Of a DNA stretch of 64,000 nucleotides, positions 474 through 60,938 are shown piece by piece; position 1 is the stretch's first letter, and every line of letters begins with the position of its first letter. Origin of the DNA: a virus; IMG/VR virus record IMGVR_UViG_3300012001_000006, positions 17,266 through 81,265 of that record. One strand, written 5' to 3'. The translations under genes were made by a program, and so were the position numbers. The notes under the pieces were generated by a model. It did no database searches, was not told where the DNA came from, and was given only the letters and a program-made list of their open reading frames with translations.

Positions 474-3400
474 TCAGCTCAAAATCTCACTAACTTTTTC
501 GAACACCGCCATCAACACCTCACCCTTCGTTGGATCGAACGTAATCTGCTGCGCGTTCAAGCCGCACACGATCGAGGCGTCGAGCTTCGGGTCGTAGATG
601 ACCTTGCCCGCCAACTCGGCCGTGCCGCCCTTCAACCCTGGCACGAAATGCTTGATTGCGGCCGAGCCAAGCGCGACGATGATTGCCGGCTTGATCAGTT
701 CAATCTCGCGCTCAAGGTACTTCGCGCAGCCATTGATCTGTGCGTTGGTCAGAAACTTCTCAGACTTTTTGGCCTTGACCAGCGTCGTGTAATAACCGTC
801 TGCCGGTAGCAGGCCCGCGTCTTTGATCGCTTGCTTGATGTAACCCGCAGCGTCGCCCTCCAACAGCTTGCCGACCTTCTCTTCCTGCCACGACGGACAG
901 TCCGAGACAACCATGAATTTGACCGTACTCTTCATCCTCACGGTCGGGTGTGGCTGATCGTGCAGGTCGCAGCCGGTGCAGGTTCGATAGTCCTGAACGA
1001 CGTGAATGATCTTGGCGCGCAAGAACTTCTCCGTCACGTCGGTCTGGCGATCTGCTTTCACCGAGTCCACGATCAGACCAGGCAGAAGCTCCATCTGGTC
1101 TTTGCGGCGGTCAGGGTGACGCGCAGCCTTCTCTGTCGAATCGATCGCCGCGTATGCGCCAACCAGCCCTAAGTTATCGACCACCCGCGCATTGACCTTG
1201 GAACCCTTTTGCGCTGCCGACGTTCTGAACTCCTCGATAGTATCGAAGCGACCCTTGACGGCACCCCATACCGGCTTGCCTTTTGCGTCAAAAGTCAGTT
1301 CCCGCGCAGCCTCGCGCAGTTCGACGATGCGCTTGGCGGCGTTGTCCGAGCAGCCTTTCATCTTCGAGAATGGCATCAGCAGGTGCTTGTTGTCCGGTAT
1401 CGTGAAATACTCGGTGGACTTGTTGATGTCAGGCGGCAGCAACTCGATGCCGTAGCCCCTGGCGTCATTGACCAAGCTCGTCAGTTTGTCGTCGCCAACC
1501 ACCGACAGACAAGCGGCGAAGTATTCAGCGGGATAGCGCACCCGCACCCACATCGTCCAATAGCTGATGACCGAGTATTCAACGGCGTGCGACTTGTTGA
1601 AGCCGTAACCGGCGAAGGCTTCGATCTTATCGAATAGCTCACCCGACTCGTATGCCGCCATGCCCGACTTGCTCAAGCACCCGTCGATCCATTGTTGACG
1701 CATCGACGCCATCTTGTCTTTGTCCTTCTTACCCATCGCCTTACGCAAGTGATCTGCTTCGGTGCGGGTAAAGCCGGCAAGGTCGACCGCCAGTTGCATG
1801 ACCTGTTCCTGGTACACGATGACGCTGTACGTTGGACTCAGCGACGCCTCCATGTTCGGATGCTCGTAATACGGCACCTTCGTACCCTGCTTGATCTGCA
1901 CGAAGTCAGCCATCAGGCCCGACTCCATTGGCCCTGGACGGTACAGTGCGGTCGCCGCGGTGATGTCCTCGAACGTCAGCAAGCCACCCATCGCGAGGTC
2001 GCGCAGCAACTTTTTCATGCCTGGCGATTCGAACTGAAACACGCCCGTCGTGTCGCCACGCCCGAACGATTCCATGATGTCGGTCTCTTCGAGCGGCAGA
2101 TCGATGTAGCTGAACGCGTAACCGTGCCGGTCTTTGATGTAGCGGCGGGCCAGCTCAAGCACATCGAGCGTGGACAGGCCCAAGATATCCATCTTGACCA
2201 GCCCGAAGTCCTCGACGACGCGCTTGTCCCAACAGACCACCGGCACGCCATCATCGCTCTCGCGGGTCTCGACAACGGCACGGTTGATCAGCGGCTCACC
2301 GGCGACCACGACACCTGCGGCGTGCTTACCGAACGAGCGCATGACCCCTTCCAGCTTCAGGGCGTGGCCCCAAATGTCTTCGTGCGTATTCTTGAACTTC
2401 TCCAGCTCCGGTACGGCTCTGGCTGCGTCGGTCAACGAGCAGGACTGACCGTGTTCTTTCGGCACCAGCTTGGTCGCCATCAGATCCAGGTTCGACAAGT
2501 CATGCACCCGACCGGCGTCACGCAGGGCAGATGCCGACGCCAACGTCGAGAAGTTGCTGATACCCGCTACGCGATCGGCGCCATACTTGCCCGCCAGATA
2601 GCCGACGACCATGTGGCGCTTCGAACTCATGAAGTCAAGATCGGCGTCAGGTAAGTCGAGGCGGTCAGGGTTGATGAACCGCTCGAACAGGAGGTTGAAG
2701 CGGATTGGATCGACATCGGTGATGCCGAGCAGGTACGCAACCAGTGAGCCGCCGACCGAACCGCGTCCAGGGCCGACGATGATTTCGTTCTGCTTGGCCC
2801 AGACGACCAGATCCTCAACCAGCAAGAAGTAGCCGGCGAATCCCATCTTTTTCAGGACGCTTAGTTCGAACGCCAGACGTGCGCGGTATGCTGGCAACTC
2901 TGTCGCGGTCGGCATGTGACCGAGTACCGGCTGCACGAAGCGGCGCTTCCAACCCTCGATGCATTTCTTACCGAGCGTTTCGAACTCGTTGACCGCCATG
3001 ACCGGCAGCGAGACGGGCATTTTCTTGAACTCGTACTCGCACAGGTTCGCCAGCTTTTCGATGCCGCCCATCGCTGTGCGCCACATCATTGGCTCGTTGA
3101 CGCCGTTCCATTGCTTGACGCGGGCCGCAGCGCCGGTGACTCGACGCGCCAGATCAATCGGCGGACGAAAGCCAAAATCCTTGACGTGCTGCTTGACGCG
3201 GAACGTGGTGGACATCTTCGATTGCGACGTGATGACACCGAGAACGTCCAAGGTGGACGCATCAGCGTCGTCGCGGTACAGGAATGGGTAAGTGGCGACT
3301 GTCGCATAGCCACCCTTCGCCGCCTCGATCGCTTTCGCATTCAGGGTGTCAAACAGCGGCGTGTCGATCGGCACCAGCTCCACGAAGGTCGGGAATTTCT

Positions 3401-3887
3401 CCGCCAGGTCTTCGAGAATCCCTTTTGCCTCTTTGTGGTGAAACAACCCGTTAAAGTCGCCGGTCGATACCGCAACGCCCTCCAGCCCCATTACGTCCTG
3501 CCAGCCGCAGCGCGAATGGTAATAGAAGTATTCCTTCGAGTTCGCTTTCGACAGCAGCTTCAACAAGGATGAAATGCCGGCGTCGTTGATGGCGTAGACC
3601 TTGATCGTCACCATCTGATTCGGCACTTCCTTGATGCCGCTTGCCTTCGCCGGCTTGTGATAGGTCGGGTCGTCATAGACGCGCAGCCGGCAGCCGATGA
3701 TCGACTTCAGGCCCGCCTTCTTGGCGCGGCTGGCGAAGTCAACCATGTTGTGAATGGACATCGAGTCGCACAGCGCGACCGATTCGTAGCCATGCTTTTT
3801 GGCCTCCTCAATTATGTGATCGACTTGCAGTAGTGATTGACCGATGGAAAAATCAGACATCACATTGAGCGCATGATTGATATTCAT
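474..3887 (-). CDS. dnaE: DNA polymerase III alpha subunit with C-terminal uracil-DNA-glycosylase family 4-like domain
   Basis: N-terminal PHP-like domain; GPGRGSVGGSLVAYLLGITDVDP; catalytic PDADLDF; KMDILGL; GVFQFES; FAGYGFNKSHA. C-terminus has CTGCDL...LEREIELIKPAIIVALG, typical of the UDG-4 fold. Confidence 0.95.
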   Translation of the reverse strand: MNINHALNVMSDFSIGQSLLQVDHIIEEAKKHGYESVALCDSMSIHNMVDFASRAKKAGLKSIIGCRLRVYDDPTYHKPAKASGIKEVPNQMVTIKVYAINDAGISSLLKLLSKANSKEYFYYHSRCGWQDVMGLEGVAVSTGDFNGLFHHKEAKGILEDLAEKFPTFVELVPIDTPLFDTLNAKAIEAAKGGYATVATYPFLYRDDADASTLDVLGVITSQSKMSTTFRVKQHVKDFGFRPPIDLARRVTGAAARVKQWNGVNEPMMWRTAMGGIEKLANLCEYEFKKMPVSLPVMAVNEFETLGKKCIEGWKRRFVQPVLGHMPTATELPAYRARLAFELSVLKKMGFAGYFLLVEDLVVWAKQNEIIVGPGRGSVGGSLVAYLLGITDVDPIRFNLLFERFINPDRLDLPDADLDFMSSKRHMVVGYLAGKYGADRVAGISNFSTLASASALRDAGRVHDLSNLDLMATKLVPKEHGQSCSLTDAARAVPELEKFKNTHEDIWGHALKLEGVMRSFGKHAAGVVVAGEPLINRAVVETRESDDGVPVVCWDKRVVEDFGLVKMDILGLSTLDVLELARRYIKDRHGYAFSYIDLPLEETDIMESFGRGDTTGVFQFESPGMKKLLRDLAMGGLLTFEDITAATALYRPGPMESGLMADFVQIKQGTKVPYYEHPNMEASLSPTYSVIVYQEQVMQLAVDLAGFTRTEADHLRKAMGKKDKDKMASMRQQWIDGCLSKSGMAAYESGELFDKIEAFAGYGFNKSHAVEYSVISYWTMWVRVRYPAEYFAACLSVVGDDKLTSLVNDARGYGIELLPPDINKSTEYFTIPDNKHLLMPFSKMKGCSDNAAKRIVELREAARELTFDAKGKPVWGAVKGRFDTIEEFRTSAAQKGSKVNARVVDNLGLVGAYAAIDSTEKAARHPDRRKDQMELLPGLIVDSVKADRQTDVTEKFLRAKIIHVVQDYRTCTGCDLHDQPHPTVRMKSTVKFMVVSDCPSWQEEKVGKLLEGDAAGYIKQAIKDAGLLPADGYYTTLVKAKKSEKFLTNAQINGCAKYLEREIELIKPAIIVALGSAAIKHFVPGLKGGTAELAGKVIYDPKLDASIVCGLNAQQITFDPTKGEVLMAVFEKVSEILS

Positions 3888-7180: not shown

Positions 7181-9331
7181 CTACTTCAAGATCAGGGCGC
7201 GAAGTTCCTTCATGACGACGCCAGGCAGGTCTTCCACGTTGTTCAACGTCAAGTGTTTCGGGTAGAAACGCCGCACTTCGTCGGACTGGATGCCGATACC
7301 GATCACGTTGACACCGGCCCTTGTGATGTCCGCGATCGTTTTCTTCAGGTGCGGCGCCAGGGTATGTGTTTCGCCGGCCGCGTGTGGGGCGCCATCCGAC
7401 AGCACCATCATGATCTTGCCTGTCTCGCGACGATTCATCAGGCGGCGGGCCGCAATCTCGACGCACTCGCCATCGACGTTGTTGTGCAAGATGTTCGAGT
7501 TGGGCAGCCAACCGAACCGCGCCTTCACGTCCGTCGTCATGCGCTCGTCGAAACCTTTCAGAATTGGCATATAGAGCGCTTCGACGCGGCTGAATCTGCG
7601 ACCGAGTTTGGCGGTCTCGGCCGACAGCGTGGCGTGATCAGCGCAGCCTTCGCCGGTCGTGAAGCAAATCACTTCGCACTTGATGCCAATCCGCTCCAGT
7701 ACGCTGGCTAACGCGTACGCCGCCTGGGTCGCGGTGTCGATCTTTTGACCATCCATCGAGCCGGACGCATCGACCACTAACTCGACCGCCACGTCCTTGC
7801 TGGTCGCTTCATGCTTGCGGCGAAACACCCGATCGTCACCGACTGCAAGGCGTGACAGGTTTGCAGCATGGATGCGACCGCTGCGATGCCCTGCCGAGTA
7901 CATCGACAGCGAACGGGCCGCGATGGCGCGCTCCAGGTCTTTCTGAAGTGGCGCAACCATGTGATCGACTTTCGACTGCAAGCGCGTCAGCATGGCAGAG
8001 TCGTATTCGCGACCGACCTTCAACGGCTCAACGACATCCTTGTCCTTCGTGTAAATCAGGTAGTCGGATTCTTTCGCCGCATCGCAAGCGGCAGACGAAA
8101 TCAACGTGGACATGGTTTCGTCAAAGTCGCGCTTAGTCTCCTTGTCGATCGCCGACCAGTTGATGCCGGCAGCTTTCGTGATGTCCGTTTCTGACTCGGC
8201 AGGCTTGCTGGCGCCGTCAGACGCTTCAGGCATACCGTCACCTTCTTCATCACCTTCGTCGTCACCGCCACCGCCAGACAGGTCGCCATCTTCTTCGTCA
8301 GGCATTGGTTCGTCGTCGCCTTCTTCACCCTCACCCTCTTCCTCTTCTTCGCCCTCTTCCTCATCGGCTTCAGGGTCAGCTTCGGGGTCAGCTTCATCCT
8401 CTTCAGGGTCGGCCGCTGGATCAGCTTCAGGGTCTTCCTCGTCGGTTGGTGCCGGCGTTGGGTCTGCCTCTGGATCTTCTTCGGGCGGTTCGGTTGCGGC
8501 AGGGTCTTTTTCGCCTGGTGTCGGTTCGCCCTCTTCTTCCTCTTCGTCGTCTTTAGGCTTCGGTTCGGCTTTCGCTTTCTTTGGCTTGGGCGACTTGGCG
8601 GGCTTCTCTTTCGACTTCTCACCCTTGCCACCGCCTTCACCTGCGTCACCCGATGGTGACGGCGGTGTCGGGGCCGGCGGTGCCGGTGGGGCTGGCTTAG
8701 CAGCCTTCAGGCGCTTCGTAACCTCTTCGGCGATCTCAAGGCAGTCACGCGTTGATGTCGCGCCCTCGATGCGATCCGCCAGGTCTTTGATTTGGTCATA
8801 GACTGGCGCGATGATGTGCATCTTGTCCTTCATGTATTCTTTGAACACTTGCTGACCCGCCATTGCGCGAATCAGCGGCACCATCAAGGCGCCGATCACC
8901 GTGTCGGTGTCGCCTTTAGCGACCGCTTCCGCAACGCGTGGCGTGGTGTATTTGTCGAGGAAGAACTTCCCCGTATTGGCAAGGTTCAGACCAGAACCTT
9001 GAAACCGCTGCGCCATGCAACGCTCGATGCGGCTGTCTTCAATCAGGTTGAGCATTTGGCCCGAACCCGATTTGATCGCTGCATCCATCACGTTGAATTC
9101 GGTGAAGAGTATGTGAGCAACTTCGTGATCCAAGAAACCTTGAATGGCGTCGATCAGTTCGTCGGTAGCGTTATCGGGTAGATACGGCAGGTTGACCAAG
9201 AAAGGACGACCAGCGCTGTCAGCTTTCACAAAGGCGCTTACTCCGCGCTGAGTGACTTGGATTCCCTTACCGGCGAGCATCTGCGTCAATTTGACGACTG
9301 ATTCACGCATTACATATACACGTTCGTTCAT
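7181..9331 (-). CDS. CobT-like protein: HExxH domain, long Pro-rich/acidic linker, VWA domain
   Basis: LDHEVAH, EDSRIE; Asp/Glu-rich linker; MIDAS VVDASGSM and MVLSDGAP; adjacent to CobS-like ATPase; GAGGAG RBS before ATG 9331. Confidence 0.88.
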   Translation of the reverse strand: MNERVYVMRESVVKLTQMLAGKGIQVTQRGVSAFVKADSAGRPFLVNLPYLPDNATDELIDAIQGFLDHEVAHILFTEFNVMDAAIKSGSGQMLNLIEDSRIERCMAQRFQGSGLNLANTGKFFLDKYTTPRVAEAVAKGDTDTVIGALMVPLIRAMAGQQVFKEYMKDKMHIIAPVYDQIKDLADRIEGATSTRDCLEIAEEVTKRLKAAKPAPPAPPAPTPPSPSGDAGEGGGKGEKSKEKPAKSPKPKKAKAEPKPKDDEEEEEGEPTPGEKDPAATEPPEEDPEADPTPAPTDEEDPEADPAADPEEDEADPEADPEADEEEGEEEEEGEGEEGDDEPMPDEEDGDLSGGGGDDEGDEEGDGMPEASDGASKPAESETDITKAAGINWSAIDKETKRDFDETMSTLISSAACDAAKESDYLIYTKDKDVVEPLKVGREYDSAMLTRLQSKVDHMVAPLQKDLERAIAARSLSMYSAGHRSGRIHAANLSRLAVGDDRVFRRKHEATSKDVAVELVVDASGSMDGQKIDTATQAAYALASVLERIGIKCEVICFTTGEGCADHATLSAETAKLGRRFSRVEALYMPILKGFDERMTTDVKARFGWLPNSNILHNNVDGECVEIAARRLMNRRETGKIMMVLSDGAPHAAGETHTLAPHLKKTIADITRAGVNVIGIGIQSDEVRRFYPKHLTLNNVEDLPGVVMKELRALILK

Positions 9332-9433
9332 AGCTTCTATCTCCTCGTTCATCACTCAGCATTGAGTGAACATTTACAATGATAGAGAAGCTCGTCAGGA
9401 AGCGCAACGACTATCTGAAAGAATCCTGAACGT

Positions 9434-9461
9434 AAAAAAAGCGGACGTTTATGTCCGCTTT
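9434..9461 (-). terminator. Rho-independent terminator
   Basis: A7-GCGGAC-loop-GTCCGC-TTT. Confidence 0.65.
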
Positions 9462-9480
9462 GTCGTTGGCGCTGACGCCC

Positions 9481-9666
9481 TCAAAGCCGGAGCAGCCCAT
9501 GTTTCGTTCCGGTCGTATTGACCAGGATGATGTTGCCTAATTTCGGATGATTAGCTCTATATACGAGGGACTCCCCCAAGTCTAACTGATCTTGAACTGT
9601 CGACTCCTCCAACGTGTCGACAAATGATTGCAGGCTAAGAACGGACGTTTTTGCTGAATGTGGCAT
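9481..9666 (-). CDS. Small hypothetical protein
   Basis: 61 aa, GGAGAG RBS, TATAAT upstream (9709-9714), terminator downstream. Confidence 0.6.
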   Translation of the reverse strand: MPHSAKTSVLSLQSFVDTLEESTVQDQLDLGESLVYRANHPKLGNIILVNTTGTKHGLLRL

Positions 9667-9919
9667 TTATTCTCTCCGAGTTGATTACTGTTATGTGCGC
9701 TACACCACATTATAGCTCACCGCTAACTTACTTTTATTGTGGAAATTGTTAATCTTCGTTTCTTCTTTACTGCATAAATCGGGACTGAATTGGGGCTGCT
9801 TTTTAAATCTTATTAAAACGATAACGGTAAGTCACTAAGAAGTAATAGTTTATGAACTATAATATAAACGTGAGATGAATCACTTACCTGCCGGTCGTCC
9901 GGCGCTGAATGGAGAAAAC

Positions 9920-10360
9920 ATGACTAAAGAACCCAAAGCCTCAAAGGCGACGAAGAGTCCGACCGTTGCCCAGTATCTTGAAATGCAATTCAATCTCTGC
10001 GGCAAGTCGCAGATAGAGATCGCCACCGAATGCGGCTTTCCAAAGCCAAACATTCTCTCGATGATCAAGCAGGGCAAAACAAAACTACCCATCTCGAAGA
10101 TCGCCGTAATGGCGAAATCGCTCGGTGTTGATCCGCTGCATCTGTTCAAATTATGTATGCAGGAATACGAGCCGGCGAATTGGGAGGCAATCCAAGAAAC
10201 AATCTTGAAGCAGCCCGTCATCACCGCTAACGAGATGGAGATCATTCGGGTGATTCGTAAATCAAACGTGATCAATCCGAAGCTGCGCACGAATGAGGAA
10301 CGCATTCGTTTGCTCGACGTGATTGCGACGTTGAAGCCTGAAAACGCCACCAACGACTGA
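9920..10360 (+). CDS. XRE/Cro-CI-type HTH transcriptional regulator (repressor candidate)
   Basis: KSQIEIATECGFPKPNILSMIKQGKTKLP HTH; GGAGA RBS before ATG 9920. Confidence 0.85.
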   Translation: MTKEPKASKATKSPTVAQYLEMQFNLCGKSQIEIATECGFPKPNILSMIKQGKTKLPISKIAVMAKSLGVDPLHLFKLCMQEYEPANWEAIQETILKQPVITANEMEIIRVIRKSNVINPKLRTNEERIRLLDVIATLKPENATND

Positions 10361-10375
10361 TCCATTCTCACCCTC

Positions 10376-10402
10376 AAAAAAGGCACCTTCGGGTGCCTTT
10401 TT
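10376..10402. terminator. Bidirectional Rho-independent terminator
   Basis: AAAAAAGGCACC-TTCG-GGTGCCTTTTT. Confidence 0.85.
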
Positions 10403-10568
10403 ATTGTCGTTTTATTGGACGAGAACAACTATGCTCTTGTGTAACATTGTGCGCAAGTGTATAAAAATACACTTGACAGATTAAGTGCGAAGTGATTCGA
10501 CTACCTGTAATATATGACTTCATGCTGTCGCTACATGGTGAAAATGATATTTTGTACACTATGCGGCT

Positions 10569-10817
10569 ATGAAAAGTCCAAAGTCCGTGCGCCGGCAGGT
10601 TACAAATATCATTCCATTTGGCTTGCGTATGCAGCCCGATCTGAGAAAGTTGATTGAAAAGGCGAGTGAGGATACGGGTCGGTCGCTCAATGCGGAAATT
10701 TGCATCCGACTCCACCAAACCTTTATGGCAGACAACAAGGCCGATGAATTGCTGGCGGTGGCAAGGGCAATTCATGCGGATATCCAGACCCTAAAGACCG
10801 TGCGCGCGCCAAAGTAA
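10569..10817 (+). CDS. Arc-family ribbon-helix-helix DNA-binding protein
   Basis: PFGLRMQPDLRKLIEKASEDTGRSLNAEICIRL fits the Arc/Mnt pattern. Confidence 0.88.
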   Translation: MKSPKSVRRQVTNIIPFGLRMQPDLRKLIEKASEDTGRSLNAEICIRLHQTFMADNKADELLAVARAIHADIQTLKTVRAPK

Positions 10818-10889
10818 TCCGCTGAGCCTGGCGAGACACTCTCAAAACTGCTATTCTCTCGACGACTTCACCATGAAGCTATCGATGGA

Positions 10890-12011
10890 GTGAATCGCAT
10901 CGCGCGCGTCTCAAAAATAGCAGTAAGCAAAGACGGCTATATCCGAATGCGGAAAGCTGCATTCAAGAAGTTGGCATTTCAACAGTTGGTGGCGAATGCT
11001 GATCCGGAATTGCTTAGTGAATTGATCGGTCAGGCGATCCCGTCCCGCATTGCAGGTTTTTGCGAATGGGTGAGCGACACAGCGCCGGTGGTCAGCGTCG
11101 GTTTTGATTGGCACATCAATGACGAACCAAACCGCGTCGCCATCTTGTCTAATGCGCCTCGCACCAATCTGATGATGGTCAACGCGAAGGGCTACGATTA
11201 CGGGCCGCAGCGCACGTCGCGGTTCCTACTAACTTGGATTAATACCTTTCTCCGCCCGCGATTATCGCCTCTCGCGCGGCAAGATATTGTGTCGAACAGT
11301 AGCGGATGGCGCGGCGGCTACCTGTCCATTCTGGACAACTTGACGACAGAAATGGCGCTCTACAAACAGGTTGAGCGGCGGGTGCGCGCGCTTGGCTTTG
11401 ACTACACCGCGTACGGCATTCGGATGGCCTTCCCTATCATCCGGCCAACTGTGTGGACGCACAACAATTACCCCGAAGAGTGGCAGCGGCGTTACGCAGA
11501 AAAGGATTACGTCGATATCGACCCTACCGTTCAGCGCGCGATCGAGTCGCCGCTGCCGATGGTTTGGTCAGACGCATTATTTGAGGATCAGCCAGAATTC
11601 TGGCGTGATGCGCAAAGGCACGGCTTGCGCTTTGGGTGGGCGCAGTCGTCAAGGGATGCCACCGGCTCGGTCGGTCTTCTCAGCGTGGCGCGACGCGATG
11701 GACCGATCACGGACGCCGAACTGCAAGAAAAGCAGCACAAGTTGTCGATGCTCGTCCAAATCACACACGCCGGCATGTCCAGGATTATGGCGCCCGCACT
11801 TGCGCCAGGGCTGCGCGCGACCGTAACCTCTGGAGAGCGCGAGATTTTACGCTGGACGGCCGAGGGGAAAACATCAGCCGAGATTGCGAGCATTTTGGAA
11901 TTACCGGAGCGCACCGTCACGTTTCGACGCACCGCCGTAATTAGAAAGTTAGGCGCCGTGAATATCACCCAAGCGACGGTGATGGCGTTCTCTCTCGGGA
12001 TGATTTGCTAG
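10890..12011 (+). CDS. RsaM (DUF4902)-like domain fused to a CepR/SolR-type LuxR regulator (autoinducer-binding domain plus HTH)
   Basis: N-terminus SKDGYIR, DPELLSEL, AGFCEW, VSVGFDW, RTNLM (RsaM-like); then NYPEEWQRRY, IDPTV, MVW, FW, GLRFGW, EREILRWTAEGKTSAEIA (LuxR). Confidence 0.85.
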   Translation: MNRIARVSKIAVSKDGYIRMRKAAFKKLAFQQLVANADPELLSELIGQAIPSRIAGFCEWVSDTAPVVSVGFDWHINDEPNRVAILSNAPRTNLMMVNAKGYDYGPQRTSRFLLTWINTFLRPRLSPLARQDIVSNSSGWRGGYLSILDNLTTEMALYKQVERRVRALGFDYTAYGIRMAFPIIRPTVWTHNNYPEEWQRRYAEKDYVDIDPTVQRAIESPLPMVWSDALFEDQPEFWRDAQRHGLRFGWAQSSRDATGSVGLLSVARRDGPITDAELQEKQHKLSMLVQITHAGMSRIMAPALAPGLRATVTSGEREILRWTAEGKTSAEIASILELPERTVTFRRTAVIRKLGAVNITQATVMAFSLGMIC

Positions 12012-12019
12012 AAAAATAA

Positions 12020-12037
12020 TAAGTCATTGATGACTAT
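12020..12037. promoter_or_regulatory. 18-bp palindrome upstream of xis
   Basis: TAAGTCA-TTGA-TGACTAT. Confidence 0.7.
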
Positions 12038-12095
12038 CATTTGCGCCAATTATTGTATAAGATAATGCCATTACTTACCGAGTGGCGAGATAGCT

Positions 12096-12440
12096 GTGAG
12101 AACCCTAGACATTGATGAATGCGCCGAATTCCTGAAGGTTGATCGCTCGACCGCATTGCGACTGGCCGGCGGTGGCGAGCTACCTGGCGCCAAGATCGGA
12201 CGCGCGTGGGTGTTCCTGCTGGACGACTTGGTGGAGTATCTGCGCACACAGGTGCGCTCTCAGGCGCGGCAGCGTCAAGCGGAAGCCGACACCGATGGCG
12301 CGCTGAACAAGGCGGTCGTCAATAACGCCTCGTTCGTGATGTCACCCATGCGCCGGCGGCCGAAGAATGCGGCCCCCGACCTGTCAGGCTACCCTGACCT
12401 TACCAGAGCTTCCCCGCCAAATTTGAGCCGCGCAGGTTAG
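12096..12440 (+). CDS. xis: Excisionase-type HTH protein
   Basis: LDIDECAEFLKVDRSTALRLAGGGELPGAKIGRAWVF; convergent with the integrase. Confidence 0.8.
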   Translation: MRTLDIDECAEFLKVDRSTALRLAGGGELPGAKIGRAWVFLLDDLVEYLRTQVRSQARQRQAEADTDGALNKAVVNNASFVMSPMRRRPKNAAPDLSGYPDLTRASPPNLSRAG

Positions 12441-13563
12441 CGTAACGCGCCAACATTCTGGTCGAACTGTGGCCGGTGATCTTCATAATCTCTGTGTCCG
12501 ACAATGTGGTGCGTTCGAAGAAGCGGGATGTCGCCTCATGACGCAGATCGTGGAAGGTTAGATCGGGACAGCCCGCCGTCTCGAAGACGCGCGAATACTG
12601 CTGCGACATCGCCGCGCTCAATCGCTCCAACGTCTGCCGCTCCACGCCCCCATCCCACCAAGGGAACAGCCTCTCTTTGTTGAACTTGAAGTCTTCCATG
12701 CCGCGCGTGCCGGCGCCCACATGCTCCAGGTACTCGCGCAGTTTGGCAACCGCGACCGTCGACAACGGCACCTGTCGTTTGCTGCCGTTCTTTGTTTTCT
12801 CCAGGAAGATCGTACACAATTCAAAGTTCAGTTGATCGAGCGTGAGCGTGTACATTTCCCGCATTCTCATCGCCGTCTCCAGCGCCAGGTCAAACAGCAT
12901 CTCGATGGCCGCCTGGTAGCGCATCTCAAGCGCCCTCTGCTTGTCGGCCGACTTCGCGCCCGCCATCACCGCGCGAATCGCCGGCTCTTCCAGCACACCT
13001 ACGCGGCGATCGCGCGACACGTCTTCGCGCCTGGTGTGATGTGGGTTGTTCTTGGCCGCCTCGAACGATTCCTTGTCGGTGTATTGCGCGTAGCGTTTTG
13101 GCAGTTGACGAATTGGATTGAGCGCGAGCGCGACGATGTTTTTATTGGACGCCCAATCGAAGCATCGAGCGAGCGCGCCGACGTGATGTCGAATCGTTGA
13201 TGGCGCGATATTCAACTCGATCTTCATACTGCGAATCCACTTCTCAACCCACACGTAGTTGATCAACTTGATCGGCGTCGCGCCGATTCTGGCATACGCC
13301 ACGTTGAGCAGGTTCACGTCCGATTGCGGTATCGTGTTGTGCGCGAGATAGCCGCGAATCACTTCGGCCAAGATGGTGTAGACGGCGGTTCGGGTGTCCA
13401 GCTCCGGCGGCACGATGCCGTTATCGAGCAGCGCTTCGATCTTCGCGATGTAGGCGTCGCCTTCTTCTTCGTTGTTGGTGTAGTAGCGCCACGGCCGCGG
13501 CAGCAATTTTGCGCGCTTGACGACGTACTCCCACGAGTCGCCTTTCTTCCGTTTCATAGCCAT
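12400..13563 (-). CDS. int: Tyrosine recombinase / phage integrase
   Basis: ETAMRMRE (R), KTKNG (K), FHDLRHEA (HxxR), ITGH, RYAN (Y); GGGAGG RBS before ATG 13563. Confidence 0.95.
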   Translation of the reverse strand: MAMKRKKGDSWEYVVKRAKLLPRPWRYYTNNEEEGDAYIAKIEALLDNGIVPPELDTRTAVYTILAEVIRGYLAHNTIPQSDVNLLNVAYARIGATPIKLINYVWVEKWIRSMKIELNIAPSTIRHHVGALARCFDWASNKNIVALALNPIRQLPKRYAQYTDKESFEAAKNNPHHTRREDVSRDRRVGVLEEPAIRAVMAGAKSADKQRALEMRYQAAIEMLFDLALETAMRMREMYTLTLDQLNFELCTIFLEKTKNGSKRQVPLSTVAVAKLREYLEHVGAGTRGMEDFKFNKERLFPWWDGGVERQTLERLSAAMSQQYSRVFETAGCPDLTFHDLRHEATSRFFERTTLSDTEIMKITGHSSTRMLARYANLRGSNLAGKLW

Positions 13564-13680
13564 CTTTTTCCTCCCGTTGACGGCCAACAGGCCGAAGTGC
13601 GGGTGGACTGTCCACCCGCGATGGGTGGAATCATACCCTTTTAGGCACTTTTAGGCGACTCTACGTTGGCGACGGGCAAG

Positions 13681-13704
13681 AAAAAGCCCACTAGGAAGTG
13701 GGCT
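13681..13704 (-). terminator. Terminator hairpin downstream of the tRNA 3' fragment
   Basis: AAAAAGCCCACT-AGGA-AGTGGGCT. Confidence 0.65.
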
Positions 13705-13731
13705 AAGTCTTTGATTCTATTACCTAAAAAC

Positions 13732-13782
13732 TGGAGGCGGGGGTCGGGATCGAACCGGCGTAAACGGCTTTGCAGGCCGCTG
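13732..13782 (-). pseudogene. 3' fragment of tRNA-Cys(GCA), serving as att core
   Basis: Minus strand CAGCGGCCTGCAAAGCCGTTTACGCCGGTTCGATCCCGACCCCCGCCTCCA: GCA anticodon loop, GTTCGA T-loop, U discriminator and CCA; 5' acceptor strand and D-arm absent. Confidence 0.9.
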
Positions 13783-13850
13783 TCGTTTGTTTAGAATCAA
13801 AGACTTGCGTGAGTCGTCCACCTTATCGTCCACCCGACACTTTTTCAACT

Positions 13851-14498
13851 TCAGCGCGACAGGTAGGTCTCGATGGACTTGCGATCCGCCTCTTCGTCGA
13901 TGCGAATCAGGTTCGCGTAGCCATTTTCCAGTTCGGCCCACACCATCCCGAACGCCTCGAAGATTGTGAAGTCGAGGCCGGTCAGTCGGGCCAGACGCCC
14001 ACCTTCGTTTTGCCAGAACACGTACGGGAAGCGAAGCTGCTGCGGACAGGCCAGGATGCACTTCTTAGCCAGCGCTGAGAGCGCCTTGGTGCGCTCCATG
14101 CGGGAGACCATCGTCCAGGTCACGCTGGCGACCTCTGACGCGTCCATGCCGGTCTCCAGGGCGAACAGAATCGCCGCAGCTTTCGGTTGCTGCGCGTGTC
14201 GCAGTCCATTACGCAGCTCACCCGCTGTCAGGTAGACGCGCGATGGCGAGCGGTAGGTCAGCATGGGAGGGCTGGCAAATTCGTTGCGCGCGACCGCCGC
14301 TTGTACTTCTCGCATTGCGAGGTCGATGGCTGATTCTGCTTGATCGCGCTGGCCGGCTTCTGACATGCGGGCCACGAACGCGTAGATGGATGCGGTGCTG
14401 ATCTTGTCGGCCGGTCGAGACCAGAGCGGCGACTGTGAGAGCGGCGATACGCCGAGAATTGTGGAAATCTTACCGATGTCCTTGAGCGCTGGTGTCAT
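13851..14498 (-). CDS. Degenerate tyrosine-recombinase-like protein, catalytic residues apparently missing
   Basis: ILFALETGMDASEVASVTW resembles recombinase box I (TGMRxxE) with R replaced by D; no HxxR. Confidence 0.55.
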   Translation of the reverse strand: MTPALKDIGKISTILGVSPLSQSPLWSRPADKISTASIYAFVARMSEAGQRDQAESAIDLAMREVQAAVARNEFASPPMLTYRSPSRVYLTAGELRNGLRHAQQPKAAAILFALETGMDASEVASVTWTMVSRMERTKALSALAKKCILACPQQLRFPYVFWQNEGGRLARLTGLDFTIFEAFGMVWAELENGYANLIRIDEEADRKSIETYLSR

Positions 14499-33031: not shown

Positions 33032-33049
33032 TAAGTCATGACTGACTTA
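33032..33049. promoter_or_regulatory. Perfect 18-bp palindrome upstream of the tail fibre gene
   Basis: TAAGTCA-TGAC-TGACTTA; TAGAAT on the minus strand at 33028-33023. Confidence 0.75.
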
Positions 33050-45848: not shown

Positions 45849-45866
45849 TAAGTCAGGTCTGACTTA
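45849..45866. promoter_or_regulatory. Perfect 18-bp palindrome
   Basis: TAAGTCA-GGTC-TGACTTA between major tail and chaperone genes. Confidence 0.75.
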
Positions 45867-60909: not shown

Positions 60910-60938
60910 TTGATAATAAGTCATTTGTGACTTATACT
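60910..60938 (+). promoter_or_regulatory. Sigma70-like promoter with a perfect palindrome across its spacer
   Basis: TTGATA (60910-60915) - N17 - TATACT (60933-60938); TAAGTCA-TTTG-TGACTTA at 60917-60934. Confidence 0.75.

Follow-up and report, generated by a model that had tools for sequence, protein, structure and literature searches.

Within a 64,000-nucleotide (nt) stretch of viral DNA (the window hereafter; bases 17266-81265 of the 81,265-b IMG/VR virus record IMGVR_UViG_3300012001_000006, which CheckV estimates to be 77% complete), we identified a gene that encodes, in a single chain, an RsaM domain joined to a complete LuxR-type quorum-sensing receptor. We establish the architecture, conservation, phage location and descent of this fusion, and the explanation that best accounts for the whole is a phage regulator that would listen for acyl-homoserine lactones (AHLs) and carry a tethered RsaM modulator, a reading to which our analysis gives a probability of about one half. 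Natural fusions of this kind are the classic "Rosetta stone" argument that two proteins, here RsaM and LuxR, are direct partners, and the few phage receptors that may sense host quorum-sensing signals are joined by a new type.

Architecture and integrity of the fusion protein

A sequence-only reading of the window had proposed an uninterrupted 373-amino-acid (aa) open reading frame (ORF) with an N-terminal RsaM domain followed by a full LuxR receptor, and the analysis bears this out. The ORF runs on the + strand from a GTG at 10890 to 12011 and has no internal stop, lying in an open frame of 397 codons. Profile searches suggested for the two halves were run, and DUF4902 (PF16245), Autoind_bind (PF03472) and GerE (PF00196) each matched far over their cut-offs, the last two in the usual LuxR order. 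DUF4902 scored 93.3 bits against a cut-off of 25 (expectation value, E, 1.3e-26; aa 13-120; profile positions 1-109 of 118) and 96 bits in a six-frame search, Autoind_bind 126 bits (E 1.1e-36; aa 156-294) and GerE 53.7 bits (E 1.6e-14; aa 313-366). Among sequences of known structure in the PDB, aa 13-114 matched the RsaM protein BCAM1869 (4o2h; phmmer, E 4e-15), which a 17-row RsaM profile including the window protein matched at E 1.4e-34, and aa 142-372 matched RhlR (E 2.8e-50), with QscR (E 7.5e-46) and SdiA also found. The N-terminus is thus a true RsaM/DUF4902 domain by both its Pfam and its 4o2h matches, and the remainder is a complete LuxR-type receptor.

That an assembly or frameshift error joined two separate genes is so improbable as to be negligible, since the full-length homologue P0002 (373 aa) shows 52% identity across both halves (369 aligned residues) and a linker 4 residues longer, P0121 and the more distant P0202 show the same three domains in continuous order, an identical protein is encoded on a separate 57,307-b ENA contig, the frame stays open for 397 codons, and a Logan contig of 2,847 nt from a soil-metagenome run bridges 10915-12500 with 0 differences at a depth of about 83 (this run may be the source sample, making it a second assembly and not a second sample). 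The check for misassembly across the domain junction that the sequence-only reading had called for therefore excludes one as far as these contigs and the homologue allow. The sole irregularity was a unitig break at 10915-10944, where one low-depth 48-nt record has a loose end resembling an adapter; the break falls within the RsaM domain and away from the junction. None of the runs listed as carrying this stretch was an RNA run; one soil-metagenome DNA run carries it.

An alternative start, the ATG at aa 20, is used in a 354-aa ENA gene call (P0001). Because that choice removes the family-invariant D15, Y17 and R19 of the DGYIR segment, the GTG at 10890 must be the start. Upstream we noted a six-codon ORF (10873-10893, with its ATG at 10873) whose TGA overlaps the GTG of the fusion as GTGA, and the GTG has no well-spaced Shine-Dalgarno sequence; on these two features, translation of the fusion may depend on termination-reinitiation.

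The N-terminal motifs listed by the sequence-only reading are present in the translation as S13-x-D15-G-Y17-x-R19, D38-P-x-L-L-x-E-L, A55-G-x-x-E-W60, V68-x-V-G-x-D-W74, R91-x-N-x-M95 and A99-K-G-x-D-x-G..R-T109, as are EEWQRRY (196-202), EREILRWTAEGKT (316-328) and TVTFR (342-346) in the LuxR half. Across 17 RsaM rows (the window protein and 16 stand-alone proteins), eleven positions are invariant and all are kept here (D15, Y17, R19, G56, E59, W74, N93, M95, G101, D103 and G105); tryptophans W60, W74 and W116 are also present. The first tryptophan of GW(D/G)W is phenylalanine in the window protein, P0002, P0202 and two shorter relatives described below (P0123 and L017), and the fused clade has RTN for RSN and a linker in place of the C-terminal WQ segment of stand-alone RsaM.

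In the LuxR half, W198, Y202, D211, P212, W226 and G326, invariant among 53 LuxR-type rows, are all retained, together with E316 (in at least 90% of the rows) and L320. We take the first five to correspond by their spacing to TraR W57, Y61, D70, P71 and W85, and E316, L320 and G326 to E178, L182 and G188. The recognition helix of the helix-turn-helix (HTH) domain is where the protein diverges. TVNFH had been named as the usual form of the TVTFR segment, and the consensus of the 53 rows is indeed ERTVNFH; F345 and H346 occur in at least 90% of them, and the window protein has F-R. All stand-alone relatives read ERTVNFH...SNKTQAA, whereas the fused proteins read ERTVTFRR (window), ERNISDRR (P0002), ERTTAHRW (P0123 and L017) and ERSLKFSL (P0202). 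This pattern of substitutions would fit either new, element-specific DNA targets or a relaxed constraint on DNA binding.

For the predicted structure, an AlphaFold2 model was built from the 53 rows (alignment A5), a mixed alignment of fused, RsaM and LuxR rows (A4) having been discarded because its RsaM rows were misaligned across the LuxR part. The model has a mean predicted local distance difference test score (pLDDT) of 88.6 and a predicted template-modelling score (pTM) of 0.64, with confident parts at aa 8-124 (beta-rich with helices) and aa 138-373 and a pLDDT below 50 at aa 125-137, which supports an RsaM domain joined by a flexible tether. In Foldseek, full-length QscR, RhlR and SdiA resembled the model (target TM score 0.79-0.87), and only LuxR-type chains appeared among the matches listed for the whole model. 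A complex prediction of the RsaM domain with the LuxR part, run without controls, scored 0.24 against a mark of 0.32 and weighs neither way on binding.

Phage location, relatives and descent

The closest counterparts of the phage's portal protein (54% identity) and DnaE (42-44%) come from Rhizobium phage RHEph10 and relatives, followed by Pseudomonas phage nickie and the SSU5 group; phages of these groups measure 103-122 kb, consistent with the 77% completeness estimate. The element is a temperate phage from a soil metagenome, SSU5/RHEph10-like by these matches. Phage genes stand on both flanks of the locus (Table 1), which places the fusion gene in the lysogeny and integration module of the phage itself rather than in a host flank and upholds the claim of a phage-encoded single chain. 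The guanine-cytosine (GC) content of the gene (56.6%) equals that of the phage (56.9% in the window), and the gene is therefore not a fresh capture. The sequence-only reading had found no luxI synthase in the window; this extends to the whole 81,265-b record (77% complete), in which PF00765 had zero matches at E<=1 and no second LuxR was found.

An exhaustive phmmer search with aa 1-135 against 1.84 billion representatives returned 343 DUF4902 proteins at E<=0.001. In the best 150 of these, the full fusions were limited to the window's own cluster (P0001) and P0202 (375 aa), and the best non-self match was P0123 (199 aa, 43% identity), in which DUF4902 is joined straight to GerE with no autoinducer-binding domain. 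Pattern scans of IMG/VR with A1, P0002, P0202, P0123 and A3 gave no relative, a genome-contig scan with A1 found nothing, a JGI metagenome scan with P0002 gave only one distant LuxR (L002, 24% identity), and ESM Atlas had no large cluster of the fused architecture among the matches listed. A search with aa 1-130 limited to proteins of 205-653 aa retrieved the window's own protein alone; as it missed P0002 too, its word filter is too strict for this domain.

The nearest stand-alone RsaMs in species genomes belong to Paucimonas, an uncultured Oxalobacteraceae bacterium and Noviherbaspirillum humi, beside which the genes are ordered luxR(-), rsaM(+), luxI(+); with this order, the fusion cannot stem from simple deletion of a spacer there. 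In a sample of 401 genomes of the N. humi GTDB family, DUF4902 was present in 38 (a tally that includes one unpublished genome, G082), and fused forms in four of the 38. Three of these encode full chimeras (G312, 393 aa; G276, 389 aa; G334, 388 aa), two of which (L013 and L014) were confirmed to have the three Pfam domains, and the fourth (G283) encodes a 199-aa DUF4902-GerE protein (L017). The window protein is only 20-24% identical to L013, L014 and L015, a figure that concerns the chimeras of this bacterial family, which may differ from the published Massilia proteins considered below. The search for other fusions that had been suggested thus yielded P0002, P0121 and P0202 in addition to the chimeras in G312, G276 and G334. 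A 515-codon open frame in G272 (L016) was set aside as an ordinary rsaM gene with an open upstream frame and not a fusion.

Two phylogenies were computed as quick IQ-TREE runs with Shimodaira-Hasegawa-like approximate likelihood-ratio test (SH-aLRT) support only, both with long-branch warnings. In the RsaM-domain tree (100 rows), the window protein, P0002, P0123 and L017 from G283 form a clade with a support of 98, and all eight fused rows group together with a support of 82, again subject to those warnings. In the LuxR-part tree (72 rows), the window protein and P0002 are sisters (99), joined by P0202 (93), and the three nest in a 99-supported clade of 33 with the LuxRs of N. humi and Paucimonas; the G312, G276 and G334 chimeras form a separate, very long branch, and the fused state needs two changes on this tree. 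By both of its halves, then, the window protein is placed in a small fused lineage; the fused forms as a whole, distant chimeras included, may have one origin or two. As the trees show, both halves derive from rsaM and luxR loci of Noviherbaspirillum/Paucimonas-type Burkholderiales, with a solR-like luxR. Branches of the fused proteins measure 0.5-0.66 versus a median of 0.12 for stand-alone LuxRs, and between the window protein and P0002 the LuxR half is 58% identical over 236 columns and the RsaM half 44% over 124 columns.

Other fused proteins are also encoded on phage-like elements. The 199-aa RsaM-HTH gene of G283 (L017, 9702-10301, - strand) is carried by a prophage of about 40 kb on contig G283:C11 (about 381.7-422.1 kb; L017, L019 and L020), where its neighbours are a repressor-like gene and further genes that match PHROGs; terminase large subunit, portal, head morphogenesis, major head, minor tail and tape measure genes lie about 16-29 kb to one side and an integrase about 10 kb to the other. 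At E<1e-5 the fusion is the only window ORF with a match in L017, which marks this prophage as unrelated to the window's phage. The G276 chimera (L014, 9375-10544, - strand) adjoins a response-regulator-like gene on a separate 87,120-b contig, G276:C2 (L021-L025), in a genome whose chromosome contig exceeds 7.4 Mb. PHROG matches were found for 4 of 10 scanned large ORFs of G276:C2, three of them structural (two tail fibres and one internal virion protein, E 2.2e-77), and this contig is likely a phage-plasmid. We also noted a 2,882-aa ORF on it. A near-identical chimera to that of G276 occurs on a 45.9-kb contig of G334, and around the G312 chimera 2 of 10 ORFs had PHROG matches, none structural. 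HK97-capsid and Phage_portal Pfam models had no match on G276:C2, G334:C202 or G312:C82, and the portal and CobS-like proteins of the window had none in G276 or G334. In INPHARED, RsaM matches were confined to two "Acinetobacter phage MD-2021a" records, in which the RsaM-like gene and the LuxR gene, annotated as sdiA, are distinct and stand about 0.8 kb apart.

The sequence-only reading knew of no described RsaM-LuxR fusion, a claim refuted by the literature. Venturi et al. 2023 (Microbiology 169:001417; PMC10710839) describe a chimeric RsaM-LuxR solo, "type 8", in two Massilia species with no luxI nearby, and take it as a hint that RsaM acts through contact with LuxR; according to the same review, pfam16245 occurs in no further domain architecture. 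The window protein likewise has DUF4902, Autoind_bind and HTH domains in that order with no luxI found in its record, but it is phage-encoded, whereas the article presents the Massilia form as a bacterial gene without mention of phages. In literature searches for "RsaM-LuxR" and "DUF4902" this was the only article returned, and further full-text searches gave no report of a phage-borne RsaM among the papers listed, judged in part by titles and abstracts; those listed for RsaM with prophages dealt with radical-SAM enzymes, unrelated RNAs or strains. The fusion as such is therefore already in print, and what is new is its carriage by a phage in a lysogeny control region; in the literature searched, we also found neither a fused clade defined by both halves nor a description of an RsaM-HTH form lacking the AHL-binding domain.

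Stand-alone RsaM, TofM and AbaM belong to the same family as the N-terminal domain by the HMM and 4o2h matches, and every alignment-invariant residue is shared; those proteins are 140-170 aa long and are transcribed as separate units beside luxI and/or luxR (PMC10710839), whereas here the domain is fused into a 373-aa ORF, without the WQ segment and with the phenylalanine noted above. Free RsaM acts negatively on LuxI/R circuits, was crystallised as a dimer and binds neither DNA nor AHL, its mode of action being described as unknown (PMC10710839), and a preprint reports that RsaM negatively modulates a LuxI/R circuit, naming no partner (bioRxiv 10.64898/2026.07.23.740290). Similarly, the LuxR half is about 50% identical to metagenome proteins named SolR and has the same predicted fold as RhlR and QscR; from receptors of the SolR/RhlR/QscR type the protein differs in its extra N-terminal residues (about 137) and its non-TVNFH recognition helix.

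Possible roles of the protein

If the protein is an AHL-listening phage regulator with a tethered modulator, it would act as a LuxR solo, binding AHL made by the host or its neighbours, and in its AHL-bound form would then bind phage DNA through a recognition helix that has diverged from the host type. The tethered RsaM domain would restrain the receptor from within the same chain, or set its threshold, much as free RsaM does in host circuits. The predicted output would be a cell-density-dependent choice between lysogeny and excision or lysis, as in the modules of Aeromonas phages that combine XRE, LuxR and a small ORF (smORF), and because the fusion sits between an Arc-like regulator and an excisionase-like gene, that output would be excision or induction, with the 61-aa ORF at 9481-9666 (- strand) as a candidate small effector.

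The Aeromonas phages ARM81ld and Apop supply the closest known parallel. Their XRE-LuxR operon needs C4-homoserine lactone (C4-HSL) to switch on an antirepressor smORF (PMC10432266; PMC6456758): the phage LuxRs bind host C4-HSL and, with the upstream XRE protein, activate a counter-oriented small ORF that inactivates cI (PMC10432266). Shared with the window are a temperate phage that encodes a LuxR-type receptor, a gene for a small DNA-binding protein ahead of it on the same strand, a counter-oriented small ORF nearby (here a candidate), and a proposed coupling of host AHL to the lysis-lysogeny decision. The receptors are only 29% identical over aa 144-372 of the window protein, however, those of the Aeromonas phages lack an RsaM domain, and those phages are linear and plasmid-like, in contrast to the present phage with its integrase and excisionase-like gene.

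A number of observations weigh against this reading. The partner of the Aeromonas receptors is an XRE protein, and here it is an Arc-like protein encoded 72 nt upstream on the same strand; moreover, compared with Silpe-type modules, the candidate 61-aa ORF faces the XRE-like gene and not the Arc-LuxR pair, and it has no PHROG relatives. With one mismatch permitted, a lux-box-like motif, CTGT-N8-ACAG, shows no enrichment in the window (21 matches versus 18.6 expected). A luxI gene may lie elsewhere in the phage, as the record is 77% complete. The phenylalanine in GW(D/G)W and the loss of the WQ segment may have altered RsaM function, and with a pTM of 0.64 the predicted model fixes no arrangement of the domains. 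Lastly, P0123 and L017 have no AHL-binding domain, and AHL sensing is thus dispensable for at least some members of the clade.

One alternative is that the protein jams host quorum sensing, its RsaM domain repressing host AHL signalling and its LuxR part sequestering AHL or pairing with the host LuxR into inactive heterodimers; one purpose might be to hold off anti-phage defences that are under density control. LuxI/R circuits are negatively regulated by RsaM (PMC10710839), the phage protein Aqs1, which inhibits LasR, sets a precedent (PMC13043044), the closeness of both halves to Noviherbaspirillum/Paucimonas-like RsaM and LuxR makes cross-talk with a host LuxR plausible, and the diverged recognition helix also fits a protein that no longer needs a lux box. 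A pure sponge would not need an HTH, however, and this one is complete with E316, L320 and G326 kept; in addition, the gene stands among phage regulators and excision genes and not among early host-takeover genes, and the relative without an AHL domain retains RsaM and HTH, a sign that the conserved output is DNA binding. We consider such a jammer unlikely.

The relatives without an AHL domain suggest a regulator independent of AHL, in which the RsaM domain would be the real input or dimerisation module of a GerE-type factor and the autoinducer domain a structural leftover. P0123 and L017 (199 aa) are DUF4902-GerE proteins that share the 98-supported clade of the window protein, and the dimer seen in RsaM crystals could supply dimerisation for the HTH (PMC10710839). 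Against this, every pocket residue invariant in the 53 LuxR-type rows is kept, the Autoind_bind score of 126 bits is as high as in stand-alone receptors, and the LuxR half is better conserved relative to P0002 than the RsaM half (58% versus 44%), so we rate this account as rather improbable.

A passenger gene, that is, a host chimera acquired beside the attachment site with no role in phage biology, would suit the position of the locus as a + strand island beside the integrase in a mostly - strand genome, and the GC content of 52-53% in the region 8001-12000, which is below the window average. The phage genes on both flanks show that this is not a prophage edge, though, and the gene's own GC content matches that of the phage; a clade member occurs in an unrelated prophage beside a repressor-like gene and a distant chimera on a contig with phage structural genes, while the length of the fused proteins' branches, a multiple of that in stand-alone LuxRs, argues for a separate history. 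A mere passenger is accordingly very doubtful.

More broadly, and tentatively, RsaM-LuxR and RsaM-HTH chimeras might mostly be phage regulators: temperate phages and phage-plasmids of Oxalobacteraceae-like soil bacteria would have captured and fused host rsaM and luxR, the tether would reveal direct contact between RsaM and LuxR, the form without an AHL domain would reveal that RsaM alone can gate a GerE HTH, and the Massilia "type 8" gene may itself sit on such an element. We hold this generalisation to be possible rather than probable. If true, the phage chimeras would be the first tractable handle on the mechanism of RsaM. Phage fusions, including the form with RsaM and a DNA-binding domain only, offer small self-contained systems for dissecting the relation of RsaM to LuxR, and one such system is a prophage in a sequenced bacterial genome.

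Features of the surrounding locus

The positions of the fusion gene, its domains and its neighbours are collected in Table 1.

Table 1. Features of the fusion gene and the surrounding phage locus (window coordinates)
Feature	Position	Strand	Evidence
RsaM-LuxR fusion ORF, 373 aa, GTG start	10890..12011	+	ORF list; three Pfam domains; 52%-identical full-length homologue P0002
RsaM / DUF4902 domain, aa 13-120	10926..11249	+	PF16245; 4o2h match; 11 invariant columns; pLDDT about 85-95
Flexible linker, aa 125-137	11262..11300	+	AlphaFold2 pLDDT <50; 4-aa length difference from P0002
Autoinducer-binding domain, aa 156-294	11355..11771	+	PF03472; invariant pocket residues; Foldseek
GerE/LuxR-type HTH, aa 313-366, diverged recognition helix (TVTFRR for TVNFH)	11826..11987	+	PF00196; C-terminus alignment
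Candidate small ORF, 61 aa	9481..9666	-	ORF list; counter-oriented to XRE-like gene; own terminator-like hairpin 9461-9438
XRE-like HTH regulator, 161 aa	9875..10360	+	phrog_8 / phrog_2967 transcriptional regulator
Strong hairpin terminator after XRE-like gene	10377-10402		Terminator scan; inverted repeat I2
Arc-like small DNA-binding protein, 82 aa, 72 nt upstream of fusion	10569..10817	+	Pfam Arc E 3e-6; phrog_228 Arc-like repressor E 1.2e-7
Palindrome copy (2 mismatches), 9 nt past fusion stop	12020..12037	.	Match to TAAGTCA-N4-TGACTTA
Excisionase-like HTH_17 protein, 114 aa, 85 nt downstream of fusion	12096..12440	+	Pfam HTH_17 E 3.6e-12; phrog_66 / phrog_1840 excisionase
Tyrosine integrase, convergent with excisionase-like gene	12400..13587	-	Pfam Phage_integrase E 1.9e-20; phrog_1 integrase E 3.6e-31
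Genes left of the locus: DnaE-type polymerase with UDG-like end, HNH protein, sigma-like protein, CobS- and CobT-like proteins			
Genes right of the locus: ATP-dependent ligase, primase, DnaB-like helicase, tail-fibre-like protein, portal			

Between the terminator of the XRE-like gene and the Arc-like gene, we noted a perfect 9-4-9 palindrome, CAAGTGTAT-N4-ATACACTTG, at 10454-10475, a candidate operator of the Arc-RsaM-LuxR unit. A different, 18-bp palindrome, TAAGTCA-N4-TGACTTA, has 18 matches in the window with at most 2 mismatches versus 0.05 expected, nearly all of them intergenic (sites include 33032-33049, 45849-45866 and 60917-60934 as well as 12020-12037). Many copies, read on the - strand, abut a TAtAAT-like hexamer before - strand genes throughout the genome, and from this setting the palindrome looks like a phage-wide promoter or operator element, which may serve the sigma-like protein or some other regulator. 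We did not adopt it as the binding site of the fusion, given its general promoter-like contexts and with the copy at 12020 as the only tie.

Rfam gave nothing above threshold in 9300-14000, and ARAGORN detected no whole transfer RNA (tRNA) in the window. Beside the integrase, the segment 13731-13781 resembles a reverse-complemented tRNA 3' end, starting with TGG and continuing into the T-arm-like GGGATCGAACC, and is a likely attP core. Farther to the left, the DnaE-type polymerase (1,137 aa; 474-3887, - strand) carries a C-terminal domain of the UDG superfamily (Pfam UDG, aa 988-1086, E 8.8e-9), and this full-length DnaE-UDG form is also found in RHEph10-like and nickie-like phages (100% query cover).

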